Positions 153 through 63,498 of a stretch of 64,000 nucleotides of DNA are shown piece after piece; the stretch's first letter is position 1, and every line of letters begins with the position of its first letter. The stretch spans positions 33,849-97,848 of the IMG/VR virus record IMGVR_UViG_3300027921_000016. The stretch is one strand, 5' to 3'. The notes under the pieces were generated by a model. It made no database searches. It worked only from the letters and a program-made list of their open reading frames with translations, and was not told where the DNA came from. The position numbers and the translations under genes were made by a program. Source of the stretch: a virus.

Positions 153-1123
153 TTGGCTTTCAACTGCTCAAGAAAGGCAGCAACCTTTTCAGGGTCATGT
201 ACAGCAGGAGTATCCTCTACTCCCGCCACTTTGACAACCACTGGTTCTGGTACTGCAATTGATTGCACGACCGTGGAACTCAGGTCCATGTTTGCTAGGG
301 TATCAACATGCAGTAGCAGGAATCCAGGCAACGGCCGCACAGGGGGGTTGGACACACCCTTCTCCGTGCTGACCTTCCAGGAAAATACTGCCCAATTTTG
401 CAGCACCCAATCCACTTTCTCCCTGGTGCTTTCCCCCAGGTGCTTGTACACGCCTTTTAACTGCGCCTTGTCCTTGATCGTGAGCGGCTTCTGATACCCT
501 CCGTACAGGGTCCCCATCCTCTTCATCCAAAGACCCTCCAAGGATATTGGAGTGCCTTTGTTCTTCAATACCGTAGCTGCATCCATGTCTGTGACTCCTA
601 TAGGGGCTGGCAAGGCGCCTGCGCTGGTTTTATTATCTGCTGTAGTCTCTGTAGTATTCTCTGTTGGGTAATGCACCTGTAGGTGCAATGGTTTGCCCTC
701 ACAGGTGCATTGGTTTGCCCCTACAGGTGCAAATGAAATTCTCTTGGATAGCGGCATGGCGTCAAGGAATGTGCAGAGAATGTGTCTAGTGGGCTTACTG
801 TTGGCCATAAAAATCTCTACCTGAATAAGTTTGCACCTCACAAGAATATCCATTGCCCTGTCCAGTTGGCGGCGGGTAAGACGTACCTCCTCCCACCATT
901 CAGTATGCGTCTTGTACAGCCAGGATCGAACCACCCCATACCGGTCTTTCCGGTGGTGAGACAGTCTCTCTTTACCTTTGACATCCGGACAATACCAGTA
1001 ATGAATCTGGGACATCACCAGTGCGGCATTTATATCCCCTGTCCAGTCCACATACCCTGGACGAAACCACACCCCACGTACCTCAGGCATACAGGCCCCT
1101 GCAATCAATTGCGAAACCGCCAA
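149..1123 (-). CDS. Phage replication initiator / replisome organiser (N-terminal wHTH)
   Basis: AALVMSQIHYW...WLYKTHTEWWEEVRLTRRQLDRAMDIL wHTH motif and PTENTTETT linker typical of phage O-like initiators. Confidence 0.7.
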   Translation of the reverse strand: MAVSQLIAGACMPEVRGVWFRPGYVDWTGDINAALVMSQIHYWYCPDVKGKERLSHHRKDRYGVVRSWLYKTHTEWWEEVRLTRRQLDRAMDILVRCKLIQVEIFMANSKPTRHILCTFLDAMPLSKRISFAPVGANQCTCEGKPLHLQVHYPTENTTETTADNKTSAGALPAPIGVTDMDAATVLKNKGTPISLEGLWMKRMGTLYGGYQKPLTIKDKAQLKGVYKHLGESTREKVDWVLQNWAVFSWKVSTEKGVSNPPVRPLPGFLLLHVDTLANMDLSSTVVQSIAVPEPVVVKVAGVEDTPAVHDPEKVAAFLEQLKAK

Positions 1124-1147
1124 AAGGGGAGTTTAACCCCTTTGGCA
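1119..1147 (-). terminator. Stem-loop upstream of the initiator gene (terminator-like)
   Basis: GCCAAAAGGGG-agtttaa-CCCCTTTGGC inverted repeat. Confidence 0.35.
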
Positions 1148-1160
1148 AAGTGGCAGTGGA

Positions 1161-1868
1161 TCAGCGTGGTTCAGGCGGTTTGATGTCCACGAACACCGCC
1201 CGGCCAGTGGGGTCTGTAAAGTTGGCATCAAAATTGCCGGCATCACCGCAGCCACTCAGTACCCTGTTGATGGTATCCACACTCAGGGCCTTGACCTCCT
1301 TACGGGTACCGAGGTCCCCGAGCAATGCGGCAAGGTTCTTGCGGTCAATGTACATGCGCTGGTACCCCCCATAGTACCCGTTGCCGACGGAGAAGCGGGT
1401 GGCAAAGTACACCGCACCGTACTTGTCGGCGAGACTGTCCGCACTGTACCCCCAGGCCTCTATGGAGGGGAAGAACTTGACCTTGACCTCGCTCCCGAAC
1501 TTCCTGACCATCACTGCCGTGAACACGTCGCTGGCCGCCAGGGTGGCTGCCACCAGATAGCTGTTGTAGGAGGTAATCCCGTTACGCCAGTGTGGCTGAG
1601 TAGTGGACACCGCACGGTACGTGCGGTGGGCCTGTGAGGGGTGGACGGCCTTGGTACGTGGGGTACGGGCAGGCGCCTTTGGTTTCGCAGTCGCAACAGG
1701 CTTGGGCCTGTCGTAGGTAGCATCCGTGGTCGAGAGCACGGACTTTATCTCACAGCCTGGATATTTTTTGAACACCCCCTGCTTGGCACCACGATCAGTG
1801 TTGGCAGCGACGACGATGACCTTGGCTTTACCCTTCAGGTCGGGGAAGAACACGATTTGGAAGTTCAT
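1161..1868 (-). CDS. Hypothetical protein
   Basis: 235-aa ORF, AAGGAG RBS, in operon. Confidence 0.75.
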   Translation of the reverse strand: MNFQIVFFPDLKGKAKVIVVAANTDRGAKQGVFKKYPGCEIKSVLSTTDATYDRPKPVATAKPKAPARTPRTKAVHPSQAHRTYRAVSTTQPHWRNGITSYNSYLVAATLAASDVFTAVMVRKFGSEVKVKFFPSIEAWGYSADSLADKYGAVYFATRFSVGNGYYGGYQRMYIDRKNLAALLGDLGTRKEVKALSVDTINRVLSGCGDAGNFDANFTDPTGRAVFVDIKPPEPR

Positions 1869-1870
1869 GA

Positions 1871-2275
1871 TTACTCCTTTAGAAGTTCGATGTTTCGCCG
1901 GGGTAGGCCTACCAGGTCCCAGGTTTCAGAGTCGAGAAAACACTTACATTTTGCCAGAGCCCGTTTGGCTTCAGCTCCCCCGAAGGCTCGGGCAAATCCT
2001 TCCTTGGTGACTACCGACCACGTACCCGTAGGGTACACCCGATCTTGCAACGGGGGCTGGTCGGGACTGGCTGGCGTAGGGTTGGCTTCGATACAGGTGA
2101 TACCCTGGGCCATGAGCTTCTGACACTCAACACATGGCTCGTAGCTGGTGACCATGTGCATCGGTGCTTCTTTCGGATAAGCGGCGCCCAAGAGTGCGAC
2201 TTCGCCCGTCTCCTTGCCGCACCAAAAGCAGGTAGACAGTGTGGGGTTAAGCCCGTACTTGGCAGAGAGTCTCAT
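1871..2275 (-). CDS. Hypothetical Zn-finger protein
   Basis: KYGLNPTLSTCFWCGKE...YEPCVEC; two CxxC pairs. Confidence 0.75.
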   Translation of the reverse strand: MRLSAKYGLNPTLSTCFWCGKETGEVALLGAAYPKEAPMHMVTSYEPCVECQKLMAQGITCIEANPTPASPDQPPLQDRVYPTGTWSVVTKEGFARAFGGAEAKRALAKCKCFLDSETWDLVGLPRRNIELLKE

Positions 2276-2535
2276 GTCATGGACCTCCCGAAAAACGAGC
2301 CATCACCACCCAAGGAGTACTCCTCCTTGGCTACCGTGTCTGGGTCAGTGATGCACCCAGAGCAGACCACCATGTACTGGCCCATGCAGTCCCCACTGTC
2401 GATCGTGTGATGAAGTTCCTTGAGGTTGTCAAACTTCAGGTGCCCAGGGCCATCCGAAAGTACGGTAACCATGATCGCGGTCTTGCGGACGCAATGGTCA
2501 CTCATCTCCGCCTCCAGTCTAGGGGTTGTGCTCAA
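2272..2535 (-). CDS. Hypothetical protein (start uncertain)
   Basis: ORF overlapping both neighbours. Confidence 0.6.
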   Translation of the reverse strand: MSTTPRLEAEMSDHCVRKTAIMVTVLSDGPGHLKFDNLKELHHTIDSGDCMGQYMVVCSGCITDPDTVAKEEYSLGGDGSFFGRSMT

Positions 2536-3050: not shown

Positions 3051-4241
3051 TTATTTGCAATCAATTGCAGGTAGATAGTGGTGCTGCTTGATGGTCGCGT
3101 ACACGGTCTCCGCTACCTCCGAGTGACTGAACTCAACCTGTTGTTGGTCCTCAAGCGCCTGCCTGAGAGTCTGCTGTTGCTTCATGCTTGGGCTCTTACC
3201 CATCACACTTTGGAAGCACTTGACAGCAAATATCTTGGCATCGCCTGAGCTTAACTTCGGGATATGCAGCACCAGATCGAGGCGACCTGGGCGGTACAAT
3301 TCAACTGGCAAGACCTTCAGATCGTTGGTGGTCATGACCGTGATTACCCGGCTACGGTGGTCGGACAACCACCAAAGCAGTTGGCTCATTATCCTGGCGG
3401 TCACACCTGAATCGTCCTGGCCGCCAAAGATTTTCTCCGCTTCATCAATGAGCACCACACATGGGCTCTCGCGTTCCAACATGTTCAAGCTGCGTGCTAC
3501 TCGTGACTCCGATTCACCTATGTACTTATTTAGGGTAGTAGCGATGTCCAGACGGAACAGCGGTACCTGCCAGTGATTGGCGATGGCCTTGGCCGCCGTG
3601 CTCTTACCTACTCCTGGAGCACCTGCAAGCATCAAGCCCCTGGGCACCAGTTTGTCCGGCACCCCCTGGGTGAGAAAATACTGACCATTCAACTTGAGCC
3701 ACTGTTCCAGCTTCTCCGGGTACAGGTAGAAGTCCAGGTCGGTGTCCACCACCTGAAGGCCCTGGATGGCACCCCCAACCATGGTACGAGTTCGCCTGAT
3801 CTCCGGTAGAGCCAGACTCCCTACCCTGGCCATGGTCAGCTGCACGATCTCACTGGCGGCCTTCAGAGACAGCCCTCGCAGGGCCTGGACAATCGCAGGC
3901 ACATCCTCCGGGAGGGTGAACTCCTTGAGATAGTCCGAGACCATGCTCTGGGGCGTTGGCAACTCCCCGGCCATGAACATAAATGAACTCTTGTCCACGG
4001 GGTTGATGATCACCAACGTGGATTCGGCTTCGACCAGCTTCTTGTACACCTGGGCATCCAGGATATCCAGGTTCTCGCTCACGTACACGTAGGGTCCCAG
4101 GGTTGCACTAGACAGCTTACTGGCCGGCCAGGGAACCACCTTCTTTCCTGTGAGCAACTGCAAGGACGTAGTGTAGTTCAGCAGGTCATCCGTGTACACC
4201 CCGATCACCGGAATATGGGCGTTGTAGGCTAAATCAAAAAT
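3051..4241 (-). CDS. AAA+ ATPase (Ycf46/SpoVK-like), probable ATT start
   Basis: Walker A GAPGVGKS, Walker B VVLIDEAEK, TTN sensor, RPGRLD Arg finger; frame open to ATT at 4241, 8 nt after AAGGAG. Confidence 0.85.
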   Translation of the reverse strand: MFDLAYNAHIPVIGVYTDDLLNYTTSLQLLTGKKVVPWPASKLSSATLGPYVYVSENLDILDAQVYKKLVEAESTLVIINPVDKSSFMFMAGELPTPQSMVSDYLKEFTLPEDVPAIVQALRGLSLKAASEIVQLTMARVGSLALPEIRRTRTMVGGAIQGLQVVDTDLDFYLYPEKLEQWLKLNGQYFLTQGVPDKLVPRGLMLAGAPGVGKSTAAKAIANHWQVPLFRLDIATTLNKYIGESESRVARSLNMLERESPCVVLIDEAEKIFGGQDDSGVTARIMSQLLWWLSDHRSRVITVMTTNDLKVLPVELYRPGRLDLVLHIPKLSSGDAKIFAVKCFQSVMGKSPSMKQQQTLRQALEDQQQVEFSHSEVAETVYATIKQHHYLPAIDCK

Positions 4242-5438: not shown

Positions 5439-5796
5439 CCTTTAATGCAATTGATTGCAGGGCCGAAGCCCCTACGGGGCGGCCCCAAGTTTGCAACAAC
5501 TTACCCTGTGATACGCGTGTGATGGTACTTAGATGGCCGCAACGTGAGGCACAGCGCCAGAGAAAGGGCGTGGGGCAGACCGGCTACCAGAAAGAGCGGG
5601 GGCAACAGGCACTGGGGGTGCCGTCAACATAAGCGCATCGAGGCGTGGGTCAGGCACAAAAACCATTGGGATCACGCACACAGCCACGTAGGTTGCAGCA
5701 GGGCAAGGGCCTGGCAGGTACACGGCATACCCAGCATTGAAGCTTAAGAAGAACGAGATGATGAACGTCATGGCGCTTGCCTAGGTTAATCAGGTA

Positions 5797-6399: not shown

Positions 6400-6680
6400 A
6401 TCCCCAAAAAAAGTCGTTGTTCAGCCATACGTGCATTCCACTGAGTGGCGCACACCTTACCGTTCACTCTACACCATTTTGGGAACTCTGCGGCTGCCAA
6501 TTGAAACTCCCTACGGTTGAGGTGGTACAGCAGCGCAGTTGACTCCAGGCCATCGTCCAGTCCCTCCACCCTACCGAGGAGGACAGCCCTACCCCAGGCC
6601 AACACGGCATCCTGCTGGTGGTCTAGCAAGGGTACTGCAATCAATTGCAGCACCTTGAGACTGGCCTCCGAGGGGGTCAT
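6396..6680 (-). CDS. Truncated GH24 lysozyme-like protein (C-lobe only)
   Basis: STALLYHLNRREFQLAAAEFPKWCRVNGKV...RMAEQRLFL resembles the C-terminus of phage lysozymes; no catalytic E-D-T region. Confidence 0.6.
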   Translation of the reverse strand: MTPSEASLKVLQLIAVPLLDHQQDAVLAWGRAVLLGRVEGLDDGLESTALLYHLNRREFQLAAAEFPKWCRVNGKVCATQWNARMAEQRLFLGM

Positions 6681-7618: not shown

Positions 7619-7948
7619 TCAGGCCCGTACCATTGCCCCGAACATCAGGACATACGCAGCCAGTAGAAGACACACCCCGAGGAATACCAGACCCGCACCT
7701 GTTGGGTGTACACACGCCTTCTGTGCAATCAATTGCAGATCGAGACGATAAAACAGAAGGCGACGAATGACGTGAGAGAGCGCCACTATGTAGAAGGCTC
7801 CACCGGTAAACAGTCCCCAAGGAGCTAGTGCCGGTTCATGAAAGAACTCAGCTACTGGGACGCTGGTGGACACCAATACTGTCCCTATGAGAACGAGCAG
7901 GGCCAGTCGAAGTATGTCCGGCAGGAGTACTTTCAGAAATCGGATCAT
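7619..7948 (-). CDS. Putative holin
   Basis: 109 aa, 3 TM segments, directly upstream of endolysin. Confidence 0.65.
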   Translation of the reverse strand: MIRFLKVLLPDILRLALLVLIGTVLVSTSVPVAEFFHEPALAPWGLFTGGAFYIVALSHVIRRLLFYRLDLQLIAQKACVHPTGAGLVFLGVCLLLAAYVLMFGAMVRA

Positions 7949-12839: not shown

Positions 12840-13108
12840 GGTATTACTCCTTGGTTAGGATGAATGGATCGCCGTCATAGTCGAGCGACAAGGCATTGTC
12901 GCTGGCGATAGCCTCGGCAAGCTGGAAATTTCCTATCAGCCCAGGCGCAGCGATCACGCCCTGGCGGATCATTTCCGGGTGGGAATATGGAGTCCTGTGG
13001 TCCCGCCTGGCTGACTCACGGCATCAGACAACCGCGCCAGCTTACTTTGTTTTACCGTGAGCCCCATCGTGGTTCTCCCTCTGGAGGTCTACTGCAATTG
13101 ATTGCAGA

Positions 13109-13816: not shown

Positions 13817-13877
13817 CGACTCCTGACTGCAATTGATTACACTGGCCTATTGTACCCCTGCCTTGGCCTCCGAGTAA

Positions 13878-16352: not shown

Positions 16353-18697
16353 TCTGGCACCATGTGATCCGCTACCCCTGCATTGTACACCTGGTTGTAG
16401 TCATGCCCCGCTACCAGGAACTTACGAGTGGTATCGAGATTGGGGAACTCGTAATCCCCCGCACTGTTGGACCACACTTGGTGTACCAGGGCTCCTGTAA
16501 GTTTGTCGTACAGCCGCACATCCCTAGTGGCCAGTACCCCTCCAACCCGCACCGTTCCGTAGATTCGCCCCGACCCGCCACACAGCATGTTGCGTGTGTG
16601 GTGATCATCCAATGCAATCAATTGCACGTCGGCCGGAGGAGTGAAGGTCGGAACAACGATGTCCGTATCCAGTACGGAAGAGGCTAGGCATTGTCCTAAC
16701 GTGAGTATTTCCGGAGTTACTCCAAGGGCGTACAGAGAAAGGTCGTAAGGGCTATTCTTGATTATCTCAAGCTCGTCAATCTTACAGGGCGTGGTCGTTC
16801 CAACATTATAGTTTGCTCCTATGTACAAGGTGCCCACCGTCACGAAACTAAAATCCTCATGGTAGAAGCCCCCTATGATCACCCCATCCTGGATGAATAT
16901 ATTCAGCCCCCCTACCTTCTGCCATACAAAATAATGCCTATTCGTGTTATGCGAATAAACAAAATTACACACGTCAGACGAAATACTATTGATGCCCACC
17001 TTCACCTTAAAACCACCATCCCCCATCAGTAACTGCCAATAGTTAGCAGCATCCCCCATACACAGTAAAGCAGCAGAACTACCAGGAAGCGAATCCAGCT
17101 TATACCAGAAGCGTAGACAGAAGTTACCAGCCCCAAGCAAAAAATCGTTGGAAGTCGATACCAGCTTACCTGAGGAGGTGAACTTGGCAGCCGCCTCTCC
17201 AAACGCACTATCAGCACTGAATTCAGCGTCCCCCTGAGGCGTTACCGTATGCCCTTTAACATCGACAAAGGTAGTCACCCCCGAGGGGGCTGCCGTAGTC
17301 AAAGATAGTACAACCTTGTACCAGTGAGGATCGCCAACCACAGTCTCGGGAAAGGGTAGGCTAACCACATAATTCCCCGTGTACCTCCCCTCTCCAATCG
17401 TGAGGCGTACACAACTTACCTGGCCGTTAAGGTAATACAGGGAGGTGGCATTATAGACATTAGCGCCTATCTTCAAAGGCGTGCTCGTTGCCTGCACGCT
17501 CTTAGACGTTTCGGTACCTCCAGCATTTAACAGTCCCCCGTTAACAAAGACATACGTTCTTCCATTTTTCTTTGAAACCGCGAGGTCGTACCACACACCA
17601 AGACTGAACGTGTAGGCTCCTACCACGGTGTCGTAGACGACATTGGACCCAAAACTAGTAACCTGAAGAGAGGTCAGAGAAGAGGCCGTTCCTGTAACCG
17701 ATACCGTAAATTCCCTGGAGCCCTCTACGTCCTTACAGATAATAGTAAAAGCGTAAGTTCCTCCATTGTCTACAGGCCACCCGGTGAACCTAACGGACGC
17801 CTCTACCGTGTAATCCCTGTCCCCCAAGTATAAATCCGGGGCACTTATTGACGTTAGGTAATCCCCGTTACCATCGAACGTAAAACTGACTCCCCCAGGC
17901 AGACGGCTCTGGCCTGTAGTCACGGCTGCGTTCCCTACCCCTGTTACTACATGCTTTTTCAAATCACGGAATTGAATCTGACCATCCATGTGCATGGCCA
18001 GTACCGTGCTCGCCCAAAATCCCCCACTCTCGGGAAACGCAGCAATAGGCACTTCAAACACTTTATTAAGTGGAAACGAGCCCACGTACACCTGTAGGTC
18101 CTGCATGTAACACATAAGAGGCCCACCACTAGGGTTATAATTGACGGCCACGGCCATCCCACTGCTACTCAGGGATTCAGTACTCCTACCCACGCCAATC
18201 AACACCCTGTTAATCGCCAAGTACACTACACCCTCTACTCTGCCATAAGCCACCTCGAACCACGAGTTCAAAGGAGCAGCAGCTCCGTATGAAACGACAG
18301 TGCTTCCTGCCTTCAGAACAGCCAGTTTACCCAGCGAGTCCACTGCCAACCTGTGCCCGTCCAAATTGCTTGAGTCTTCGTTAGTGAAAGTCAGCAAGTG
18401 CTTTATGACGGAAGGAAATTCTGGGAGTTTTACCCATGCCCGCACCCAATAGCTCCCAGTACCTACAGAAAATCTTACGTTTGCGGCCACACTTAACCGG
18501 GTATCGGTAGTCCCATCAAAATACCCAACGGACCTACCATCCCTGGTCTCGGTCGTAACTATCTTGGCCGCCCCACGTACTGTAATTACGTTCTGCTGAA
18601 AACTCCTGTCCAGGATGGCCGTAGAGTTGTCTACCCCATCAAACGGTAGATGCAGTACGCAATTCGCGTACATGGGATCGACTGGAACCGTAGGCAT
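16349..18697 (-). CDS. Tail protein with three LamG/ConA-like lectin domains
   Basis: Three repeats (CVLHLPFDG / TVLAMHMDG / VVLSLTT...FVDVKG); DYTVEASVR, LRFWYK motifs. Confidence 0.8.
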   Translation of the reverse strand: MPTVPVDPMYANCVLHLPFDGVDNSTAILDRSFQQNVITVRGAAKIVTTETRDGRSVGYFDGTTDTRLSVAANVRFSVGTGSYWVRAWVKLPEFPSVIKHLLTFTNEDSSNLDGHRLAVDSLGKLAVLKAGSTVVSYGAAAPLNSWFEVAYGRVEGVVYLAINRVLIGVGRSTESLSSSGMAVAVNYNPSGGPLMCYMQDLQVYVGSFPLNKVFEVPIAAFPESGGFWASTVLAMHMDGQIQFRDLKKHVVTGVGNAAVTTGQSRLPGGVSFTFDGNGDYLTSISAPDLYLGDRDYTVEASVRFTGWPVDNGGTYAFTIICKDVEGSREFTVSVTGTASSLTSLQVTSFGSNVVYDTVVGAYTFSLGVWYDLAVSKKNGRTYVFVNGGLLNAGGTETSKSVQATSTPLKIGANVYNATSLYYLNGQVSCVRLTIGEGRYTGNYVVSLPFPETVVGDPHWYKVVLSLTTAAPSGVTTFVDVKGHTVTPQGDAEFSADSAFGEAAAKFTSSGKLVSTSNDFLLGAGNFCLRFWYKLDSLPGSSAALLCMGDAANYWQLLMGDGGFKVKVGINSISSDVCNFVYSHNTNRHYFVWQKVGGLNIFIQDGVIIGGFYHEDFSFVTVGTLYIGANYNVGTTTPCKIDELEIIKNSPYDLSLYALGVTPEILTLGQCLASSVLDTDIVVPTFTPPADVQLIALDDHHTRNMLCGGSGRIYGTVRVGGVLATRDVRLYDKLTGALVHQVWSNSAGDYEFPNLDTTRKFLVAGHDYNQVYNAGVADHMVPE

Positions 18698-35177: not shown

Positions 35178-35245
35178 GGTTACTCCAGTAGTTCAAGAAA
35201 GTGTAATCTCGTAGGTACTACCTAACAACTTGCAATTGATTGCAC

Positions 35246-36237: not shown

Positions 36238-36364
36238 GATTACTCCTTGCAATTGATTGCAGTAGTTTACGGCAACCAGGTCTAGCTAACAACCGGGGAC
36301 GAGGGTTGTTGGGGTACGGGCACCAGGGGCTTGGTGCTGCCCTTGTACGTGGGGGGTAGTAACC

Positions 36365-43629: not shown

Positions 43630-43796
43630 ACGAACTCCTTGTGCTAGTGGAGTTCATTGTACCCTACCTACGCCCGGCTGTACAAATTAAGGCTCTGCAA
43701 TTGATTGCAGACATACCAATGGCAAAGAATACTGCTCAACTCGCTCAAAAGGAAACAACGGAAGCTGCCCCCATTCAGGGCCATCTCTCCACCCCC

Positions 43797-48600: not shown

Positions 48601-50552
48601 GCTTTGGTGAGGTTCAACCCGCCTAATTTGTCCGGGTCATAGTGCTTGGCCACCACCCGCCCACCGAGTACCCCCTTGGCCTGTGCAATCAATTGCAGGA
48701 TTTCAGTATTGAGATCGGCCTCCAACTCCAAAAGCCGTTCCCTGGAAACTAGGACTCCACCTTGCTCTACGGACTCAAACGCTCTGGCAGCCGGGTGCAT
48801 GATGTTCACGTAGAAACTGGTGAGCTGCCTGTCCTTGAGCAACTCCTGTTTCATTACATCCGCCACCTGCAAGGTAGCGTCGGAGTCCCCTCCCGCGTAG
48901 GACAGCAGCTTCTCAGGGGGGACGAGATCAATCCGTGACTTGTCTACTGTACGGTCAAATTCATCGCTGTTATGGCTGGCTAAGCCTTCGGCAATAAAAG
49001 TTGACGTGGAAGTTTTAATACTGACCACCTCCTGCACCCCAACAGGGGTTGCAGACACTACAAAATCATGAGTGTACTCCTGTGGGAGTGTGCACCCCCA
49101 CCAGTCCCCGTGATCAAGTAATCTGATAGGCCGGTACTTCTGGAGCACTAGCAAACCGCCGTAAGAACCCCTACAGGTTACATTATGACAACTCTTTCCG
49201 GCAGTTATATGCAAGGTAAAATCGTTTCCGGCTATAGACAGCGCCCTGTCCAAGACTAACCCCGGCTTCTGTGCAAATCCTAACCTGAATGAGTTTGAAT
49301 GGGCCGCCTTAGTGGTCCACCCCTCCCCGTCCAGCACCCCACTAAACCACCCGGAATCAAAATCGTCACCAGGAGGTATAACCTCGGTGACTCTTTTTAT
49401 TCTCTTACCCACCAACAACGGGTCCTCTGTCCTCATCCACCGAAGATTGCCTCCCTTCTCCCCCATGTTGACTAACCACATGTGATTGGCACTAACCCGC
49501 ATTTTAGTACCAGAAGACATCACTATGTCGTAACAAAGCAAGTTCAGTCTCTGCACTGACAATACCGCAGATTTCTTAATTACCCTCCTGCCTGTACTAG
49601 GGGAATGCTCATCAAAACCAACCAGGGTATCTCCCACCTTAACGCCGCTGGCCTTAGACCAGGATAGGTCCCCCATCCACAATCTTGTGTCGGGGGCCAC
49701 ACAGTAGCCCGCTAAGGAAGGTACATACACCTTGGCGTGCACGTCCAGGCCATTACTCCGGTTCTCGTCAAGAAGGGAACCCACCAACGTGGTGTCGAAC
49801 ACAAAGTTCGTACACACCAATCCCCCACGCACCCACAGCCAGTGAAGATCGTACTTCAGGTTGGCGCCCTTCATCTTCACCTTGGGGGTGGTGAGTATCC
49901 AGGCCAAATCAGCTACATGAAGGAGAGAAGAAAACCACGCCTCTTCTCTACCCCGGTTCTGAAACCGCAAAACTGCGGACTCCCCTTTTACAACCGACAT
50001 CTGAATGCTCACGACATAGGCTCCAGGATGGGTCAGGGTTGGTTTGAGGTACGGGTCGAGCCCTACGGTCTCTAAGTCCAGGGCCACATCAACCTGGGTT
50101 TGAGTGCCCTCGTACTGATCCTCGATGAACTTCCGTAGGGTATCGAACGAGTGCACATACTCGTACTTCCCATACACCGGGGCCATACTTCCTGTTTCGT
50201 GATACCTGAGGGCCATGCTAGTGTCGCACTGCAAATCCACATAATGTGCGTAGTCCACCACCTGAACGCCGGGGCTGTAGCTCACCAAGGCCCTCATCTT
50301 GGTCAGAGGCAGGGAGATTGGTTGATTGCGCAACCCCGTTACCTTCCTGCCTTTTGGAACGAGCTTCTCCTGCGCCAGCGCCTCCAGGGGCTCCTGCCCT
50401 AGACAAAACAAAACCCCTTCCAGCCCTTGCAGGCTTGGGAAGGAGCTGAAATCGTTGAGTACCTTTATCGGTATGTGCGGGTAGGCCTTAAATTGCACCC
50501 CCAGAGACTTCTGGAGTTTTGGTTGATCCATCTTTGTCCAGATCAGAAACAT
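45690..50552 (-). CDS. polA: Family A DNA polymerase (UDG-like N-terminus, 3'-5' exonuclease) with three inteins
   Basis: LDLET exo I, NLKYD, TGRLS, DYSQGEL motif A, K..NFGLLYG motif B, IHDA motif C. Confidence 0.95.
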   Translation of the reverse strand: MFLIWTKMDQPKLQKSLGVQFKAYPHIPIKVLNDFSSFPSLQGLEGVLFCLGQEPLEALAQEKLVPKGRKVTGLRNQPISLPLTKMRALVSYSPGVQVVDYAHYVDLQCDTSMALRYHETGSMAPVYGKYEYVHSFDTLRKFIEDQYEGTQTQVDVALDLETVGLDPYLKPTLTHPGAYVVSIQMSVVKGESAVLRFQNRGREEAWFSSLLHVADLAWILTTPKVKMKGANLKYDLHWLWVRGGLVCTNFVFDTTLVGSLLDENRSNGLDVHAKVYVPSLAGYCVAPDTRLWMGDLSWSKASGVKVGDTLVGFDEHSPSTGRRVIKKSAVLSVQRLNLLCYDIVMSSGTKMRVSANHMWLVNMGEKGGNLRWMRTEDPLLVGKRIKRVTEVIPPGDDFDSGWFSGVLDGEGWTTKAAHSNSFRLGFAQKPGLVLDRALSIAGNDFTLHITAGKSCHNVTCRGSYGGLLVLQKYRPIRLLDHGDWWGCTLPQEYTHDFVVSATPVGVQEVVSIKTSTSTFIAEGLASHNSDEFDRTVDKSRIDLVPPEKLLSYAGGDSDATLQVADVMKQELLKDRQLTSFYVNIMHPAARAFESVEQGGVLVSRERLLELEADLNTEILQLIAQAKGVLGGRVVAKHYDPDKLGGLNLTKASMITDYMFSPMGLNLKPKVFTERTKAPSTGLDHLLQFEDVPEAKAFINVIKDYASATKTLSTYVVGFMKHIRSDGRMHPSYWFFAGNKDEGEGGTNCMPAGELVLTDRGYLPVESVQVGDQVISHTGRIRRVTATVDNGVQPIVTVTLANGLELRTTPNHKYLVGGGVCWVQAIDLEPGDPIVVHSGKEEWKVVPDWEDFRVSTWGRVFNTKTGKFLTQNPKEKWGHLKVCLYRNGAQSRGEDRKDFSVHGLMARVFHVPGKGDEIRHLNGIAWDDTLGNLRWGTSKGNRQDAVNHGTMNRRTGAQAKLCQAAVDFIRAQPVATRHHGWANKALSERFGVCERLIRAVRAGQRGEARDYGGKEAKFSLSEVVRVVLDTTPVRTYGLTVEVDESHVTGGIVTHNTGRLSCHAPTFQCLRGSSLVLTDTGAVSIESIVMGYEGGKSYRVLTHTGAWREVVGVYRNGVQPVFDVSFETGIIVGSTENHPYLTSRGWVRTDQLLPGDICYAAKRDRGSTSDAGVHQSNVPLMGGHEESLHQSNQQGLAEVRGSWHHVVPPVGGVLQVPGRHGGEALQGYVGGAVGREQQLRTGKLCLGYAQATGEQQDELQEDRVEWADQDRSRVGVRSRDQSGTVALSVIRGDADGASLDERDPWDRDVFQEIKVVAVVPAGECETFDLTIEGSHSFVANGVVVHNTVPKHTKWAKRIRRCYIAPDGHLVVERDYSQGELKVVACVANEQVMLQAYKDGKDLHVITGGKAAGLTYEEMMALKVSDPELFAKYRQQGKPGNFGLLYGMGAEGFQIYAFKNYGVYFTMEEATAFHAAFFATYPRLLTYHSSYKAMAKKEGQVRSPLGRIRHLPLITSPNREVASGAERQAINSPIQGTLSDMLIWTIALEHKQGLSKVSPCFGAIHDAAYNYIPEDQVDIILPKQLEIMENLPFHLVGWNPQLKFTADAKIGLDMAYLKGYERV
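46521..47354 (-). mobile_element. Polymerase intein 3 (278 aa)
   Basis: CLRGSSLV...TENHP...FDLTIEGSHSFVANGVVVHN/T. Confidence 0.9.
46613..47083 (-). CDS. HNH-type endonuclease nested out-of-frame in intein 3
   Basis: YHSWVAMKSRC...YGGRGI...ERLDVNSNYEPGNCVWAT. Confidence 0.8.
   Translation of the reverse strand: MPLKGTGVQHRTQGYTSPTYHSWVAMKSRCTSPTSKDWPRYGGRGITLCPRWVEFSKFLEDMGEKPCKGMSVERLDVNSNYEPGNCVWATPKQQGSNKTNSKKIAWNGQTKTEAEWASEAGISRGRLHYRLSVGMPMEQALMKETLGTGMSSKRLK
47391..48311 (-). mobile_element. Polymerase intein 2 (307 aa) with NUMOD4/HNH endonuclease
   Basis: CMPAGELV...EEWKVVP...VSTWGRV...HLNG...NLRWGT...VTHN/T. Confidence 0.9.
48969..49703 (-). mobile_element. Polymerase intein 1 (245 aa) with single LAGLIDADG motif
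   Basis: CVAPDTRL...FSGVLDGEG...FIAEGLASHN/S. Confidence 0.9.
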
Positions 50553-52689: not shown

Positions 52690-53403
52690 CTACCAGATAC
52701 ACCGGCTACTCGCTACCGGGGCGATGGTCCTCTTGCTCGTGGCAAACCGGAGTGGGTCTCCGGGGGACGCCTTATTGCTTCCCTCATAAAAAGGCGGGAT
52801 CTTCTGTCCGCCACCTTGGCGCTTGTAGGAGTAGTCGCCGATAAACGAGAGATTCCGGCCCTCTTTGTACCCTTGCACTTCAACAATCCCGAAATGCTTG
52901 GCCAGGAACCGCACCTGGGTCTCGGACTCCACAACCCGGTCACAGTAGTGCTTCCGCACGTAACTGATGGCGTCCAGGTTCCCAGTGAACTGGGCGGTCA
53001 CTGCCGCCAAGAAGGTGCCGGTTCTCCCATGGCCGCCAATGCACCCTGCATGAATCTTCTTGCCTTCCTGCAATTGATTGCAGACCCAGGTGATCATGTT
53101 CTTGAAGTCCTGGACATCGTGCGGGGCGCTCATGTCCGTGATAGCAAAAAGGAACTCGATCACCTTAGGCTCAGACTGATCCCAGGGGTATGCAGAATGG
53201 TGGAAGTGCATACTATGCCGGTCGAAACCAATATAGATGTCAGCGTCCTTGACTACAGGGGTACTGCAACTCCCGCCGTAGAGGAAGTACTCTTTGGGAC
53301 CCCGCACCAGTTTCAGAGGGGGATGGGTGTGATAGCAGGACTTCTCCTTACTCCCCATGTGCCAAGGTGCACCCAGATGATCGTTGTCGAATTCGCGTGC
53401 CAT
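52690..53403 (-). CDS. Cys-based protein/dual-specificity phosphatase
   Basis: ITDMSAP general acid; HAGCIGGHGRTG CX5R loop; ESETQ Q-loop. Confidence 0.85.
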   Translation of the reverse strand: MAREFDNDHLGAPWHMGSKEKSCYHTHPPLKLVRGPKEYFLYGGSCSTPVVKDADIYIGFDRHSMHFHHSAYPWDQSEPKVIEFLFAITDMSAPHDVQDFKNMITWVCNQLQEGKKIHAGCIGGHGRTGTFLAAVTAQFTGNLDAISYVRKHYCDRVVESETQVRFLAKHFGIVEVQGYKEGRNLSFIGDYSYKRQGGGQKIPPFYEGSNKASPGDPLRFATSKRTIAPVASSRCIW

Positions 53404-55019: not shown

Positions 55020-55042
55020 GGATTTCCTGCAATTGATTGCAA

Positions 55043-55617: not shown

Positions 55618-56028
55618 TCAAATGCCTAGTAAAGCTGTTGCCGTGTCTGTAAGCCTCCAGGTGCTTCCACCCGCTACCCCTCTCCCGAGGTGTACAACCT
55701 CTACCAACCCCTTGGTTCGCAGAATAGTCAAGTAGCTGGCCACATCTGAAACCGTAAACTCCTCACCCAGCTCCTTTAGCCTAGTGGTTATCTCAGCACT
55801 TGATGGCTCCTCCAACACCGAGACAACCATCAAGGTCTTACGAAGAAACGTCCCCTCCTTGGGAAGGTGGATATTCTTTTCCGTGTCCGCGTGCAGTATT
55901 TCCATAGTACCGATGGTGGAAAACACCACTTTCAAGTACCCGCACAAGCACTTGACGGCCAGATCGTGCTTACTTACCTTCGTGTACCTCGCACTGGGAC
56001 TCCCACACTTGGGACAAACTGTATTCAT
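55618..56028 (-). CDS. Zn-ribbon plus winged-HTH DNA-binding protein
   Basis: CPKCG...CLCG; SSAEITTRL...VASYLTILRTKGLV...WRLT. Confidence 0.7.
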   Translation of the reverse strand: MNTVCPKCGSPSARYTKVSKHDLAVKCLCGYLKVVFSTIGTMEILHADTEKNIHLPKEGTFLRKTLMVVSVLEEPSSAEITTRLKELGEEFTVSDVASYLTILRTKGLVEVVHLGRGVAGGSTWRLTDTATALLGI

Positions 56029-56060: not shown

Positions 56061-57992
56061 TCATTTGTGGCCGCCCTTCAACTGCACTGCGTACTCAGGG
56101 GAGATAAAAGACAAGGCCCCATCCACCTTGGAGCCCAAGGCCATACCCTGTACCCCCTCCTGCGCTTTCCATGCGAACACTTTCTTCTGCGCAGCCGAGA
56201 GCGTACCTTCCACCCCCACCACCAACCCCCCCTCAGCAAGGATCATGCTCTCCAGGTCCGTGGAGGTGCCTACAGTACCCACTCCAACCACTGAGACGCC
56301 TATCAACGTCAACTTTTTACGATCCGCTACCGAAAGCTCGTTGATCAGCCCAAGCAACTCCAGGGGCTCCCCAAATATCAGGCTCATAGGGTCACCTTTA
56401 CCCGAGACATCCACATACAACCGGGACACCAGTGGCAGAGCCTCAGTAATCAAGTCGAATGCTTCCTTGGCGTTGAAAGCCTTACTACGCAGATCGAGCA
56501 ACTGGACCTCTACGCCAGGAAGTACCCGCGTAACCGCAGGAGCCACCCCCTCACCAGAAACGGCCAGTATCCGATACTCCTGGGCGTACTTACCCCCGCC
56601 ACCCGCGATAACCGGGACTGCCTGGGTCCACACCCCACCGGTACCACCGTCAATACTGACAGTCTGGCACTTCTTGAGCAAGTCCAAAGTATTCTCACCT
56701 CCGAGACCCACCACACACGGCTTGTTCATACCCCTGGCAACAACAGCCGCATGGGAAGTAGCTCCACCAGTAATGGTCAATACCCCCACTGCTGCGTCCA
56801 TGCCCTGGATGTCTTCAGGAGTGGTTTCATACGTGACCAGGATGCAGGACTCCTTGCAATTGATTGCATCTGCGCTGGAGAACACAGGCTTACCCGACAC
56901 CACGCCTGAACACGCCGGGATTCCCTGCATCTCCGGCTTTACCGTGAACTTCGGGTCGATCACCGCGACCTGCGCAAGGTCGTAATCCCGCAGAGACACC
57001 CGCTGGAAGACCTCCTGTGGCGCAAGCATGCCTTCCTCGTACATGTCGAGCGCGATCTTGAGTGCAGCCTTGGCGCTACGCTTGGCATTTCTGGTCTGGA
57101 GGATGAACAGTTCACCGTCTTGGATGGTGAACTCCACGTCCTGCACGTCGCGCTTGAGGTCTTCCAGGGTCACTACGGTATCCGCCAACTGAGTGGCCAC
57201 CGGGGCATTCCAGGAGTTCATGGCGGCCAATGGGATGGGGGTGCGAATACCGGCAACCACATCCTCACCCTGGGCGTTTACCAGGAACTCGCCAGTGATC
57301 TTCTTCTCTCCCGTGTCAGGGTTGCGGGTAAACAGCACCCCGGTGCCCGACTGCTCATTCAGGTTGCCGAAGACCATCGCCTGGATGACAACCGCCGTGC
57401 CCCAGTCGTCAGGAATCTTGTGCATCTTCCGGTAGAACTGGGCGCGGTCATTGTTCCAGCTCTCGAACACCGCGATGATCGAGTTGAACAACTGGGCGTC
57501 AGCGGCAGGGAAGCCCTCGCCGGTTTTCCGTATGTAGTACTCGACTCCACCGGCTTCCAGCTCCTGGCGATTCAGACCCTTCACCACCGACCCGTACATG
57601 GTGACCAGACGATCACGACTGTCGTCATAGCATTTACCACCCAAGCGGTCATGCCAGTAGGCCATGGAATCGGTATCCAAGCCTACATTCAGTATTGTGT
57701 CCATCATGCCGGGCATGCTCACACGCGCCCCCGAGCGGACAGACATCAGAGGCATATAACCGAAGGCCTTGTACAGTTCGGCCTTGATTGCTGGGAGGGC
57801 GTTCTTGACTTCCAGCATAGCGGACACCGGGTCCTTCATGAAGTCCCGGCAAACATGAGTGGGGATAATCACGAACGGAGGAACATTCACCCCGTTGGAT
57901 GCCATCCAATGGAGACCCCATCCTTTTCCCCCGAGAAACTCGGAAGAATCTTCTGCTGCTGTTAGCGTGGACTGCTTGGTAACCAGTTTCAT
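56061..57992 (-). CDS. ppdK: PPDK-like kinase (ATP-grasp plus phospho-His domain, no pyruvate barrel)
   Basis: LGGKG, SVRSGARVSMPGMMDTILN, GEDVVAG, LQTR, GGATSHAAVVAR; 643 aa with unrelated C-terminal ~180 aa. Confidence 0.85.
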   Translation of the reverse strand: MKLVTKQSTLTAAEDSSEFLGGKGWGLHWMASNGVNVPPFVIIPTHVCRDFMKDPVSAMLEVKNALPAIKAELYKAFGYMPLMSVRSGARVSMPGMMDTILNVGLDTDSMAYWHDRLGGKCYDDSRDRLVTMYGSVVKGLNRQELEAGGVEYYIRKTGEGFPAADAQLFNSIIAVFESWNNDRAQFYRKMHKIPDDWGTAVVIQAMVFGNLNEQSGTGVLFTRNPDTGEKKITGEFLVNAQGEDVVAGIRTPIPLAAMNSWNAPVATQLADTVVTLEDLKRDVQDVEFTIQDGELFILQTRNAKRSAKAALKIALDMYEEGMLAPQEVFQRVSLRDYDLAQVAVIDPKFTVKPEMQGIPACSGVVSGKPVFSSADAINCKESCILVTYETTPEDIQGMDAAVGVLTITGGATSHAAVVARGMNKPCVVGLGGENTLDLLKKCQTVSIDGGTGGVWTQAVPVIAGGGGKYAQEYRILAVSGEGVAPAVTRVLPGVEVQLLDLRSKAFNAKEAFDLITEALPLVSRLYVDVSGKGDPMSLIFGEPLELLGLINELSVADRKKLTLIGVSVVGVGTVGTSTDLESMILAEGGLVVGVEGTLSAAQKKVFAWKAQEGVQGMALGSKVDGALSFISPEYAVQLKGGHK

Positions 57993-58620: not shown

Positions 58621-59517
58621 TTAGAAATCCAACGGGGAACGGAAGGCTTTGAAGCCTGGGTATCTGGGCTTGACCACACACCCTGACTTCTGAAACTTGT
58701 AGGTGATCACTCGGCCAGGCAACTTCTCACGAGCACCCCACATGATCTTCAGATCGGCCTCGGTTAGAGGCCCGGTTGCACAGTTGAACTCCACACCAGA
58801 ATACGCGTCCTTGCAGTGGAACGATCCAACGGTGTCCTTGAGCACCTTTCCTGCCTTATGAGTACTACGTTTGGCGTGTCCGAGTTCATCCTTGGTCAGG
58901 GGATTGGTATTCTCCGTCCCTTGGTTCACGTCCAAGATGATGGCCTCAGAGTCCGCCCACTCTTTCCACTTCAGCAGTGTCCCCTCAAGAACGCTACTCC
59001 TACCATTCTTGTACAGGTGACGAGGGTGCTTCAGGATAAGGCCTTCGTACCCTTGGGCAAGCGCCCGATTGTACATGGCCCGAAGGTCCTCAAGGGTATT
59101 GACTACTCTCTGCTCCAACAGATGGACCCGTGGGATGGGTTGAAACGCAAACTGAGCGGCCAACTCCGCATACCTGTCCATAGCGTGGCCGGGGTGATCC
59201 CACTTCTCAAACACGTAGAACCTGAAGTCCGGTTCACCTGTTTCGGACATCAATCCGCTGGTACTACGCTGGAACACCCCTTCTCCTCCAGGTAGCCCAA
59301 CTATTCCTTCGCCATCCAGTCCGTGCAATTGATTGCAGTACTCCTTCGCCCACTCCTGGTAAAACCGGTTAGGGATCGGCAACATCTTCCGGCTCATGGC
59401 CGTCCCATTCACCATCGGACTACGAATACCATCCAACTTGATGGACGCCATACACGGAAGTTGTATCTGCGAGTCCTCGGGTATCGTCGAGGCTGCAAGC
59501 ATTACTTTCAATGCCAT
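58621..59517 (-). CDS. lig: ATP-dependent DNA ligase
   Basis: KLDGIR, LDGE, YEGLILK, LLKWK, PRYP motifs. Confidence 0.92.
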   Translation of the reverse strand: MALKVMLAASTIPEDSQIQLPCMASIKLDGIRSPMVNGTAMSRKMLPIPNRFYQEWAKEYCNQLHGLDGEGIVGLPGGEGVFQRSTSGLMSETGEPDFRFYVFEKWDHPGHAMDRYAELAAQFAFQPIPRVHLLEQRVVNTLEDLRAMYNRALAQGYEGLILKHPRHLYKNGRSSVLEGTLLKWKEWADSEAIILDVNQGTENTNPLTKDELGHAKRSTHKAGKVLKDTVGSFHCKDAYSGVEFNCATGPLTEADLKIMWGAREKLPGRVITYKFQKSGCVVKPRYPGFKAFRSPLDF

Positions 59518-60240: not shown

Positions 60241-60407
60241 GTGCACCTCTCTGCAATTGATTGCAGGTCCTCGACCTCAGAATAAAGTACCCGTTGACCG
60301 GACTCGTACAGGTATTCGCCGTCCTCTACCGCCCGGCGTTCACTGAAGTTGAGGTACGCCCACTGCTCTCTCAAGAGCGTGAGCACCATAAGAAGTTCGG
60401 ATCGCAT
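60237..60407 (-). CDS. 56-aa hypothetical protein not in ORF track
   Basis: MRSELLMVL...LQSIAERCT*, ATGA overlap with next gene. Confidence 0.45.
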   Translation of the reverse strand: MRSELLMVLTLLREQWAYLNFSERRAVEDGEYLYESGQRVLYSEVEDLQSIAERCT

Positions 60408-61957: not shown

Positions 61958-62126
61958 TTCTGACCCCCAACTGGGCGGCTCTTCGCAACGTAAGCGAAGT
62001 GCTTGTGGTGGTGGGAGTGCTTGGCGGCTCGTACTACGTGGGCAACTTCTGCCCAGTAAAGGACTGCTACACTGACGGTTTTCATTTGCCCACTCCATTG
62101 GTCCGTTGAAATCTTTTCCTACAATC

Positions 62127-62156
62127 GTATTATCGCACAATCAGAAAGTTTGTCAA
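62127..62156 (-). promoter_or_regulatory. Sigma70-type early promoter
   Basis: TTGACAAA...ATTGTGCGATAAT. Confidence 0.65.
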
Positions 62157-62178
62157 ATATAGTTGCAATCAATTGCAG

Positions 62179-62388
62179 CTAGAGCTGCATCCTAGTGACT
62201 ACCCTGCTGCCTTTCATGATAGAGCAGAGGCCTCGTTCATCCATGACTGCGAATTCTGAGGGGCCAGGAACGCAGATAGTATGGTGCTCCACCTGCTTCT
62301 GGTGGGCACGTTCCTGAAACTGCATCCCCAGGTAGAATACCCCCAGGCCGTACACAAACAACCCTACGCCTTTCAGTATCAGATTCAT
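62179..62388 (-). CDS. Small membrane protein
   Basis: N-terminal TM helix; ATGA overlap. Confidence 0.55.
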   Translation of the reverse strand: MNLILKGVGLFVYGLGVFYLGMQFQERAHQKQVEHHTICVPGPSEFAVMDERGLCSIMKGSRVVTRMQL

Positions 62389-62984
62389 GCGGTGGTACTC
62401 CTCACGTAGCTGGAGTGTCTCCATTGGCGGGGTGGGGGAGCAGGGTCAGCCCGGTAATGGTAGTCTCCCACCACTCCCGCCATGACATTGAACATCAGAA
62501 TACGTGACCGTGCTATTTTGTAGCCTGCCCACAGTTCTTTCCGTTTGGAAGCCAGGACCTCCAACAGTACCCGATCCCCATCCGTGTCCAGGCGCTTACG
62601 AACTTGCGTCAATTTCCTCCGTTTAACCTGCATGAAGGTCCGATCCCGTTTCATCTGCATGAGATTACCCTGGATGGCGTCCGACACCACTTTGATCAAG
62701 TCCTGGGTCTCAGGTACTTGGTCGAGGACCTGGATGAACAACTGAGCAAGACCTTGCAGAGCCTGCGCTCTGATGTCCTCGGTCTGTCTGTCCGCCCCAA
62801 ACTGGTCGTAGTGTTTTCTCCTGAAGGGGTCGCTCAGCACCTCATACGCCTTTTGAACCCGGACGAAGTTGTTATGCTCGCCCCCCTTGTCCGGATGATG
62901 TTCTTTTGCCAATCTGCGGTGCGCCGCCTTTATCTCCTTAGCTGTAGCTGTTGGAGCTACCTGTAGATCGTCGTAGAGACTCAT
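62385..62984 (-). CDS. DnaJ J-domain protein
   Basis: LYDDL...EIKAAHRRLAKEHHPDK...AYEVLSDP..R..YDQFG. Confidence 0.9.
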   Translation of the reverse strand: MSLYDDLQVAPTATAKEIKAAHRRLAKEHHPDKGGEHNNFVRVQKAYEVLSDPFRRKHYDQFGADRQTEDIRAQALQGLAQLFIQVLDQVPETQDLIKVVSDAIQGNLMQMKRDRTFMQVKRRKLTQVRKRLDTDGDRVLLEVLASKRKELWAGYKIARSRILMFNVMAGVVGDYHYRADPAPPPRQWRHSSYVRSTTA

Positions 62985-63208
62985 ACTGCTCTCCCGGTGA
63001 ACCAGCCAGCATCCAGCCAGAAGAACAAGCCACTCTGGACTCTGACCCTCAGCAGCACGCCAGTCTGACTGGTAACGTACTTGACCTCCAGGACCTTGAC
63101 CCGATCTGGAAGGTACTTGAACGGTCTCTCAGAGGCGTTCCATGCTGGATCAGGGGTGAGTTCTTCCCCTACTTTGAGTGTTTCTGCCCAGGCTTTCATC
63201 ACGTTCAT
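62981..63208 (-). CDS. Hypothetical protein
   Basis: GAGGAG RBS, coupled. Confidence 0.65.
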   Translation of the reverse strand: MNVMKAWAETLKVGEELTPDPAWNASERPFKYLPDRVKVLEVKYVTSQTGVLLRVRVQSGLFFWLDAGWFTGRAV

Positions 63209-63498
63209 TTACTCCTCACAATCGTTGCTCCGGTTATGGCCGCGATTTCCTCTGCCACGGCACCACTACGATGCACACCATACAGACAGCCCACCCATAG
63301 GGTGTCGTGGTCCTCCAGCATCTGGACCCCGTGATTCACCAAGGTCAGAAACAGCGGGTGCGTCCTGACCCTGGCCCGGTAAGTGGCTTCCGGCAAAGTA
63401 GCACCCTTCTTGTACGGGTTGGGGATAACTCTGCAATCAATTGCAGGCCCCTCCGGATGCTTGTTAATGTACCCGAACTGAATTATGGTCTTACTCAT
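63205..63498 (-). CDS. RapZ C-terminal-like protein
   Basis: IDCRVIPNPY...VGCLYGVHRSGAVAEEIA. Confidence 0.7.
   Translation of the reverse strand: MSKTIIQFGYINKHPEGPAIDCRVIPNPYKKGATLPEATYRARVRTHPLFLTLVNHGVQMLEDHDTLWVGCLYGVHRSGAVAEEIAAITGATIVRSK

Follow-up and report, generated by a model that had tools for sequence, protein, structure and literature searches.

A dispersed palindromic site in a 97,848-bp phage genome and p277, its candidate ParB/KorB-type reader

The DNA considered here is a 64-kb stretch (the window), i.e., bases 33849-97848 of the complete 97,848-bp IMG/VR virus record IMGVR_UViG_3300027921_000016, which has terminal repeats. The phage is called G000 below; "genome" coordinates refer to the whole record and "window" coordinates to the 64-kb stretch. 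A 14-bp near-palindrome, TGCAATCAATTGCA, recurs about once per 2.5 kb through the phage genome. Based on sequence comparison and structure models, we put at roughly 55% the probability that this 14-mer, with the 16-bp palindrome built on it, serves as a dispersed operator for a DNA-binding homodimer encoded by the phage, most likely a small protein termed p277.

A search of both strands for TGCAATCAATTGCA, with at most one mismatch, gave 25 exact and 3 one-mismatch copies between window positions 254 and 63445, reproducing at the same coordinates an earlier count made from the letters alone (the sequence-only reading). In 100 dinucleotide-preserving shuffles of the window, the mean was 0.02 copies and the maximum 1. 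The full 97,848-bp phage carries 39 exact copies on its two strands, in an orientation ratio of 16:23, and the reversed, non-complemented 14-mer, which served as a control, occurs 0 times in the whole record. In G000 the centre of the 14-mer is CA or TG in every case, and no other central dinucleotide is found there between perfect TGCAAT/ATTGCA arms. The base flanking the 14-mer is mostly C...G, giving a 16-bp palindrome.

The copies are spaced evenly. The coefficient of variation of the gaps in G000 is 0.53 vs. 0.96-0.98 for random placement, with 0 of 5000-20000 simulations as even as observed, and the evenness persists under a null that preserves the coding/non-coding split. The shortest gap between G000 copies is 782 bp, and the longest in the genome, which follows the copy at window 16613, is 7 kb. 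Even spacing was significant in five of six genomes, again including a null that keeps the coding and non-coding classes.

By DNA polymerase, the closest cultured relatives of G000 are the Stenotrophomonas phages Summit, DLP5 and DLP3 (genus Delepquintavirus), followed by the Rhodobacter phage RcZahn and then by a group of Vibrio siphophages. Of these phages, DLP5 is maintained as a phagemid, or plasmid prophage (PMC5834331), and DLP3 is temperate (PMC7326821). When the scan was extended to relatives, it gave 22-50 copies in each against the 39 of G000: exact copies number 50, 30, 22 and 47 in the 93-98-kb IMG/VR genomes G001, G003, G004 and G005, respectively, and 26 in Summit, and DLP5 and DLP3 have about 25 each plus near copies. 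The 14-mer is identical across genomes that range from 47 to 62% in GC content and share only 30-65% protein identity with G000. RcZahn carries 18-24 copies of a variant, TGCA[AG]T[CT]AA[TC]TGCA, and the Vibrio phages KarBoss and PJ32 carry the variant TGCAATTAA-N-TGCA with a TA centre; TA-centred forms are found in RcZahn as well. The outer palindromic base depends on the lineage, being C..G, T..A or G..C.

A scan of prokaryotes with one genome per species (185,579 species) returned almost exclusively single, scattered hits. The only two multi-hit bacterial genomes, those of Paraburkholderia elongata 5N and Comamonas testosteroni SWCO2, confine the word to one island each, with 2 and 0 copies outside the islands in 11.1 and 4.9 Mb. 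A search of host genomes, the follow-up suggested by the sequence-only reading, therefore shows that the motif is not a host-wide word, and an iterated word of the DNA uptake sequence (DUS/USS) or HIP1-like kind is ruled out by the near-exclusively single hits and the single islands. The window itself was matched only in Logan contigs of one 2024 biofilm metagenome, and no RNA data set was listed. Neither orientation of the 14-mer was found in the literature searched, and no repeat of this kind is mentioned in the papers on DLP3 and RcZahn; a 2026 Nucleic Acids Research paper on a "DLP3" concerns an Acinetobacter namesake unrelated to the Stenotrophomonas phage.

Copies within genes and at promoters

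In G000, 28 of the 39 copies lie wholly inside open reading frames (ORFs). The in-gene copies occupy all frames but one, namely the frame of the antisense orientation that reads TGA. From this constraint alone, about 60% of copies in coding DNA should be in the sense orientation; the observed share is 67%. The peptides LQSIA, QLIA, AINC, AIDC and CNQL, which had been read from the letters earlier, agree with the frames that the in-gene copies use.

The in-gene copies of G000 were then mapped onto orthologues, where a match was a copy 0-2 bp from the homologous codon. Among the testable sites, matches were found at 4 of 9 in G001, 2 of 10 in G003, 7 of 13 in G005 and 6 of 9 in Summit, vs. a chance rate of about 3%. 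The alignments show the 14 bases retained while the flanking residues diverge; orthologues that lack a copy bear unrelated residues at the site, and the orientation flips at orthologous sites. The centre also flips between CA and TG among orthologues, giving AINC or AIDC in PPDK and LQSIA or LQLIA in RuvC. For example, the exact copy at window 56855..56868(-) in the PPDK ORF reads AINC and has orthologous copies in G001, G005 and Summit, two of the three with the centre flipped to TG (AIDC). The copy at 31365..31378(-), in ORF 30987-31436(-), reads LQSIA, and its orthologous codon likewise bears a copy in G001, G005 and Summit, while the copy at 53069..53082(-), which reads CNQLQ in the phosphatase-like ORF 52690-53403(-), recurs at the orthologous codon in G003 and Summit. 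Such recurrence at orthologous codons in four relatives indicates that selection acts on the DNA, as the sequence-only reading had claimed; that reading would have been undermined by a motif not conserved at orthologous positions.

All phage genes lie on one strand. Non-coding or gene-edge copies are enriched in G000 (11 of 39 vs. 11.8% expected, p=0.0045) and in G001 (28 of 50, p=1e-11), and they number 17 of 47 in G005, 12 of 22 in G004 and 11 of 18 in RcZahn. Within 100 nucleotides (nt) upstream of start codons lie 28-52% of copies vs. 12-15% expected. Certain copies adjoin a ribosome-binding site, such as the intergenic copy at 36248..36261(-), which abuts an AGGAG ribosome-binding site and the ATG of the next gene. 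Others come after terminator-like hairpins, such as the intergenic copy at 32935..32948(-), directly after a hairpin and T run and with a start codon 51 nt further on. The copy at 60252..60265(-) sits at a gene border, 12 nt before the start codon.

One subset of copies lies just before sigma70-type promoters that come close to consensus (TTGACA, 16 nt, TG-extended -10). Of the promoter-like sites on the sense strand, 5 of 16 have an upstream copy in G000, as do 7 of 26 in G001 and 7 of 16 in G005; the gap between copy and -35 box is 4-14 nt, mostly 7-8. No antisense promoter-like site in these three genomes has a copy. An independent consensus promoter scan of the window called three sites that are each coupled to the motif: 5438->5411 (TTGACA, 16 nt, TG-TATATT), 55019->54992 (TTGACA, 16 nt, TG-TAAAGT) and 62156->62129 (TTGACA, 16 nt, TG-GATAAT). 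The respective exact copies are an intergenic one at 5446..5459(-), just after a GC-rich hairpin and 7 nt upstream of the -35 box; one at 55028..55041(-), 8 nt upstream; and an intergenic one at 62164..62177(+), 7 nt upstream. In addition, the exact copy at 3056..3069(+), in the final codons of the AAA-ATPase ORF 3051-4208(-), has a TTGACA box 8 nt downstream on the gene strand.

p277 as candidate reader

The reader was sought in nine genomes (G000, G001, G003, G004, G005, Summit, RcZahn, KarBoss and PJ32) by iterative profile searches in six frames. p277 is a 275-residue protein encoded at genome 18339-19172(-) (L258:18339-19172:-, P0001), 14.7 kb before the start of the window. It is present in all nine genomes and is the sole small protein of unknown function that is both present in all of them and unusually conserved. 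Homologues at about 60% identity number more than 660, and many are encoded on contigs of 95-120 kb. Its RKAxYL helix and LGWTK segment are nearly invariant. p277 has no match in Pfam, the CTPase domain ParB_N included, and it falls in PHROG 17202, for which no function is annotated.

The protein consists of a basic N-terminus (residues 1-35 disordered), a probable helix-turn-helix (HTH) domain and a helical C-terminal part, and the AlphaFold model is confident at residues 40-175. Model residues 53-177 were compared with 48,161 representative chains. The ParB DNA-binding domain (DBD) in complex with parS (6s6h) was matched at Z 7.8, Spo0J (1vz0) at Z 7.1 (root-mean-square deviation, rmsd, 3.6 over 105) and the KorB DBD-operator complex (1r71) at Z 6.9 (rmsd 3.6 over 106 of 114 residues), followed by KorB 8qa8 at Z 6.2 and SopB-DNA at Z 4.7. 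Thus, p277 probably has a ParB/KorB-type HTH DNA-binding fold. A language-model atlas places DUF3102 and ParB-HTH clusters near p277, which we take as a lead only. The prediction of a two-copy complex supports, rather than shows, a symmetric homodimer: the interaction prediction score from aligned errors (ipSAE) is 0.71 vs. 0.00 for the best control, contact agreement among runs is at least 89%, and the predicted local distance difference test (pLDDT) of the partner is at least 80. The same mark of 0.71 was attained by 20 of 30 solved same-chain pairs and 1 of 23 solved single chains, counts that are rough because a custom alignment was used.

Two features link p277 to the motif. First, seven of the nine genomes have a copy in front of p277's own promoter, separated from the -35 box by 7-9 nt; in Summit and RcZahn it takes the perfectly palindromic TA-centred form. 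Its position at p277's own strong promoter suggests autoregulation. Second, among 41 p277-anchored IMG/VR loci, the outermost base of the half-site varies with the residue that follows RKA in the helix predicted to make the recognition contact. RKA[R/K/A/H/T]YL goes with TGCAAT, RKA[D/E]YL with C/T-GCAAT (L299, L304, L305, L316), RTIRYM with GGCAAT (L309/310), RKAFYL with TGCACT (L312) and RRAMYF with TGAACT (L315).

Binding of the motif by p277, repression through that binding and the role of the in-gene copies are what we infer, as follows. p277 would be made from a strong sigma70-type promoter with a copy just upstream of its -35 box, and its dimers would repress strong promoters, its own included, from a site that abuts the -35 region. 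In each genome it would bind another five to seven strong promoters likewise, in the manner of KorB, and occupy about 30 further evenly spaced sites, mostly in genes. With transcription of the 95-kb genome running in a single direction, these further sites would most plausibly serve as roadblocks or as points of silencing and insulation. They would block read-through or insulate modules, plausibly during a plasmid-prophage state such as that of DLP5 (PMC5834331) or lysogeny such as that of DLP3 (PMC7326821). Without a CTPase domain, p277 is not expected to slide, and this may be why sites recur every 2.5 kb.

Several observations weigh against this proposal. The top structural match of the p277 model is Raf1 (Z 9.2), and its fold matches are middling for a helical protein, with Foldseek E values of 0.6-2.7 and no Pfam hit, so that the ParB/KorB-type fold is probable and not certain. 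The co-variation of helix and half-site rests on few independent lineages, and the helix of a MerR-like protein also changes in the variant lineages L306 and L308; for both reasons, p277 as the motif reader is something we infer. One subgroup with the standard p277 helix has sparse, degenerate sites only. Two equally strong window promoters with an extended -10, at 58030-58057(-) and 59550-59577(-), have no copy, and the coupled set therefore excludes some strong promoters. Non-coding copies favour the sense orientation by 61:26 (p=2e-4), and orientation relative to transcription is nearly one-sided in G003 (29:1; L241-L245) and RcZahn (L265-L270), as it also is in the fragment G009 (L325-L330), while it is mixed in G000, G001, G005, G004 and Summit. 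A symmetric dimer does not predict such a bias. Finally, no p277 homologue is detectable in the whole P. elongata or C. testosteroni genome despite their dense 14-mer arrays. No p277 was seen in the motif-rich fragments G009 and G011 either, which is uninformative because both are fragments that lack the entire replication/recombination module holding p277.

If p277 does bind these sites, a mostly uncultured family of siphophages of about 100 kb, with more than 660 homologue-bearing contigs and cultured members that infect Stenotrophomonas, Rhodobacter and Vibrio, would run a genome-wide system of control or organisation. The DNA code would have stayed fixed while proteins diverged to 30% identity, constraining essential protein sequences (LQSIA, AINC and similar peptides), an unusually clear example of protein-level freedom yielding to a signal in the DNA. 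The system would bear on how a 95-kb genome that is transcribed in one direction and can persist as a plasmid prophage is silenced or ordered. Since Summit, DLP3, DLP5 and RcZahn are cultured, the case is directly testable, and the motif would be a practical marker for family members and prophage-derived islands.

Other readings and known systems

The main functional rival retains p277 as the reader and gives it a chiefly architectural or segregational role, in which an evenly spaced lattice bridges, compacts, segregates or marks the chromosome or plasmid prophage, as parS/ParB, RacA-ram, Noc-NBS and MatP-matS do, with promoter effects being secondary. We hold it to be a serious though clearly less probable account, and the two are not exclusive, as such a role is compatible with promoter control. 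The even spacing in five of six genomes, the predominance of in-gene copies kept at orthologous codons, the ParB-like fold of p277 and the phagemid and temperate states of DLP5 (PMC5834331) and DLP3 (PMC7326821) are all in its favour. However, the enrichment at gene borders and the fixed distance to -35 boxes fit it less well, p277 lacks the N-terminal CTPase domain of ParB, and no ParA-type partner is annotated in Summit, with no systematic ParA search made of G000. A broader and more tentative version would have a chromosome-wide, evenly spaced protein lattice mark or insulate the whole phage genome, with a CTPase-less ParB-type HTH protein as the reader and the reader-less Burkholderiales islands as satellites, or defence or cargo islands, that plug into the phage lattice protein.

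The reader may instead be a MerR-type winged-helix protein encoded at genome 24584-25000(-), between the helicase and RecA genes, with an action like that of RacA at its scattered 14-bp ram sites, which we consider improbable. This protein matches Pfam MerR_1 and a PHROG "transcriptional regulator" family, is found in eight of nine genomes and has a well-conserved helix (...TVWxLREWRxK.YFPEP). This helix is altered in L306, whose motif has a CG centre, and in L308, which has a TGCAAC half-site; the p277 helix is unchanged in both. However, L305 has a changed outer base and yet the standard MerR-type helix; the match in G004 is weak (E 1e-5), and the protein is absent from RcZahn and L315, both of which retain the neighbouring genes and keep their arrays.

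It is unlikely that the copies are targets of an enzyme, i.e., T5-like site-specific nicks, sites of sequence-specific DNA modification or short recombination sites that shuffle cassettes. Such an activity would suit the T5-like replication module, ligase included, and the nearly one-stranded copies of G003 (29:1), RcZahn and G009, as well as the copies at cassette borders in the two bacterial islands. DLP3 DNA resists 15 restriction enzymes (PMC7326821) and is therefore modified. However, orientation is mixed in most genomes and flips at orthologous sites, the 7-8-nt distance to the -35 box and the copy at the p277 promoter suit an operator better, and no nuclease or transferase linked to the motif was identified.

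The sequence-only reading had named as its local candidate a 136-residue protein with a zinc ribbon and a winged helix-turn-helix, at window 55618..56028(-). The fold is real: the model (pLDDT 82) shows a zinc ribbon followed by a PadR/Fur-like winged helix, and the best Foldseek rows are PadR, Fur and ArsR-type regulators, several with operator DNA (E about 2e-3, probability 1.0). The protein occurs in G000, G001, G003, G005, Summit, G009 and G011, all of which have the exact CA-centred motif. Even with filters off, however, no homologue is detectable in four motif-bearing genomes, i.e., G004 (complete, with 22 exact copies), RcZahn, KarBoss and PJ32, and the protein travels with a PPDK/phosphatase module that G004 lacks. 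Hence, it is a distinctly unlikely reader, marginally more so than the enzyme-target account.

Reading of the motif by a conserved host factor, or as an RNA hairpin, is very improbable: the sequence is the same in phages of alpha-, gamma- and probably beta-proteobacterial hosts and a transcript could form a 5-6-bp stem, but the word is not above chance in bacterial genomes apart from the two islands, the outer bases and half-sites vary by phage lineage and not by host, and a role in RNA fits poorly with copies that lie upstream of promoters or occur in either orientation.

Further candidates were considered and set aside. A 286-residue ParB_N protein encoded beside the terminase has its full architecture in just five of nine genomes and no evident HTH, and it carries GGHHR, which is not the CTP-binding motif. 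p254 (genome 27529-28293) is probably a gp32-like single-strand-binding protein (a lead only), and p121 gave no solved structural relative. Likeness to sigma54, IHF, Fis or LacI-type operators was dropped on spacing or sequence grounds.

Among described systems, the nearest match is the layout of KorB and its operators (OB) on plasmid RK2, where an operator is found either 4-10 bp ahead of the promoter it controls or at a distance that can exceed 1 kb (PMC11790492). The sequence-only reading had proposed a site for a dimeric protein acting genome-wide, by analogy with stoperators or with parS, SBS and matS; conservation across the clade, orthologous codons and promoter coupling support the proposal, and while those analogies are reasonable, KorB-OB is nearer. 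As with KorB, palindromic operators, alike in length in the two systems, are scattered over a mobile replicon of 60-100 kb, promoter-proximal copies lie upstream of the -35 box (4-10 bp for OB; here 4-14, mostly 7-8), further copies lie far from promoters or in genes, and p277 probably has a ParB/KorB-like HTH fold and is a predicted dimer. We note several differences. First, p277 has neither the N-terminal CTPase domain of ParB nor membership of the family at the sequence level (no Pfam hit). Second, a KorA-like partner was not identified here. Third, the density of copies is about twice as high, and the phage copies are evenly spaced, mostly intragenic and retained at orthologous codons.

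In Cluster A mycobacteriophages, the stoperators, to which L5 gp71-type repressors bind, comprise more than 20 copies of a 13-14-bp site at promoters and elsewhere, and they are thought to silence the prophage by halting initiation and elongation (PMC9283540). They are asymmetric, bound by a monomer, located in short intergenic spaces and functional in one orientation (PMC9283540). One 13-14-bp site in more than 20 copies over a phage genome is thus common to both systems. In contrast, the present site is near-palindromic, occurs in both orientations in most genomes (16:23 in G000) and is mostly in genes (28 of 39 in G000), and its candidate reader is unrelated.

RacA-ram, Noc-NBS, SlmA-SBS, MatP-matS and ParB-parS are 12-16-bp palindromes bound by dimers at tens of dispersed positions, where they organise or mark DNA instead of controlling a single gene. 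Such arrays on bacterial chromosomes are limited to a chromosomal domain and are far sparser, and none is known to be phage-wide or to be written into coding sequence at conserved codons. In the plasmid prophage P1 (~94 kb), well over a dozen scattered C1 operators control many promoters; each is an asymmetric 17-mer located at a promoter, the repressor binds as a monomer, and neither even spacing nor intragenic copies are known. Given KorB/OB, stoperators and the P1 C1 operators, dispersed operators are not new as a kind. What differs here is the combination of a palindrome, in-gene copies at orthologous codons, even spacing, deep invariance and a candidate reader with a ParB-type HTH and no CTPase domain.

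Inteins, remaining copies and bacterial islands

Hint/LAGLIDADG intein-like inserts, which are absent from relatives, are found in the portal protein (window 40879-43629), the DNA polymerase (window 45690-50552; two to three inserts), the SF2 helicase (genome 25002-27353) and DnaB (genome 31175-33448; L259). The earlier statement that no exact copy falls in an intein is correct within the window, where the portal insert (residues 376-671) holds a one-mismatch copy at 42082..42095(-), residue 514, and the exact copy in the polymerase ORF, at 48684..48697(+), residue 621, lies in an extein segment. Genome-wide the statement fails, since exact copies lie in the helicase intein (genome 26355, in its LAGLIDADG part) and in the DnaB intein (genome 32633).

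The MuF-like 1501-residue head protein (window 36365-40870(-)) carries as inserted cargo an ADP-ribosyltransferase domain (residues 378-529) and an Acb1 phosphodiesterase domain directed against CBASS (residues 610-752). It has an exact copy at 38796..38809(-), residue 690, in the Acb1 domain, and another at 40499..40512(+), residue 122, in a segment common to relatives. The ParB_N domain occurs in other arrangements in the family: G003 has three short ParB_N genes, and at G001:3599-5407 and G004:52368-53948 (L236, L253) ParB_N is fused to a methyltransferase-like C-terminal part with a GxGxG resembling an S-adenosylmethionine-binding motif, the position that the 286-residue ParB_N protein occupies beside the terminase in other family members.

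The other exact copies within ORFs of the window lie at 254..267(-) in ORF 149-1123(-) at residue 288, 6636..6649(+) in ORF 6396-6680(-), 7724..7737(+) in ORF 6951-7820(-), 16613..16626(+) in the 782-residue tail-region ORF 16349-18697(-), 23667..23680(+) in ORF 23487-23894(-), 25387..25400(+) in the 1321-residue tape-measure-like ORF 23902-27867(-), 59324..59337(-) in the 298-residue ORF 58621-59517(-), which is ligase-like by its position relative to Summit, and 63432..63445(+) in ORF 63205-63498(-). Intergenic exact copies are located at 13093..13106(-), 28513..28526(-), 35231..35244(-) and 43696..43709(-). One-mismatch copies lie at 1100..1113(+), at residue 6 of ORF 149-1123(-), and at 13828..13841(-), which is intergenic.

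The P. elongata 5N island, from L322:11286 to L323:8705 (G007:C163:47286-64718, with a duplicate on C293), holds 10 exact and 8 near copies, and the C. testosteroni SWCO2 island, at the end of scaffold 10 (L324:13004-19468), holds 4 exact and 5 near copies, about one per kb in each. Homologues of p277, the MerR-like protein, the ParB_N protein and the zinc-ribbon protein are not detectable in either island, and island ORFs show no similarity to the p277 profile. The copies border cargo- or defence-like genes, namely those for a transposase, an ADP-ribosylglycohydrolase, DUF4145, a NOV_C protein and Sel1 repeats. The Comamonas ORF L324:15563-16270(-) and the phage 392-residue head-region protein (window 33999-35177(-)) have a 56-residue stretch in common at 52-66% identity. 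In the phage protein and its orthologues, which the identity range covers, the stretch lies in the N-terminal part; it could be a shared capsid-targeting segment.

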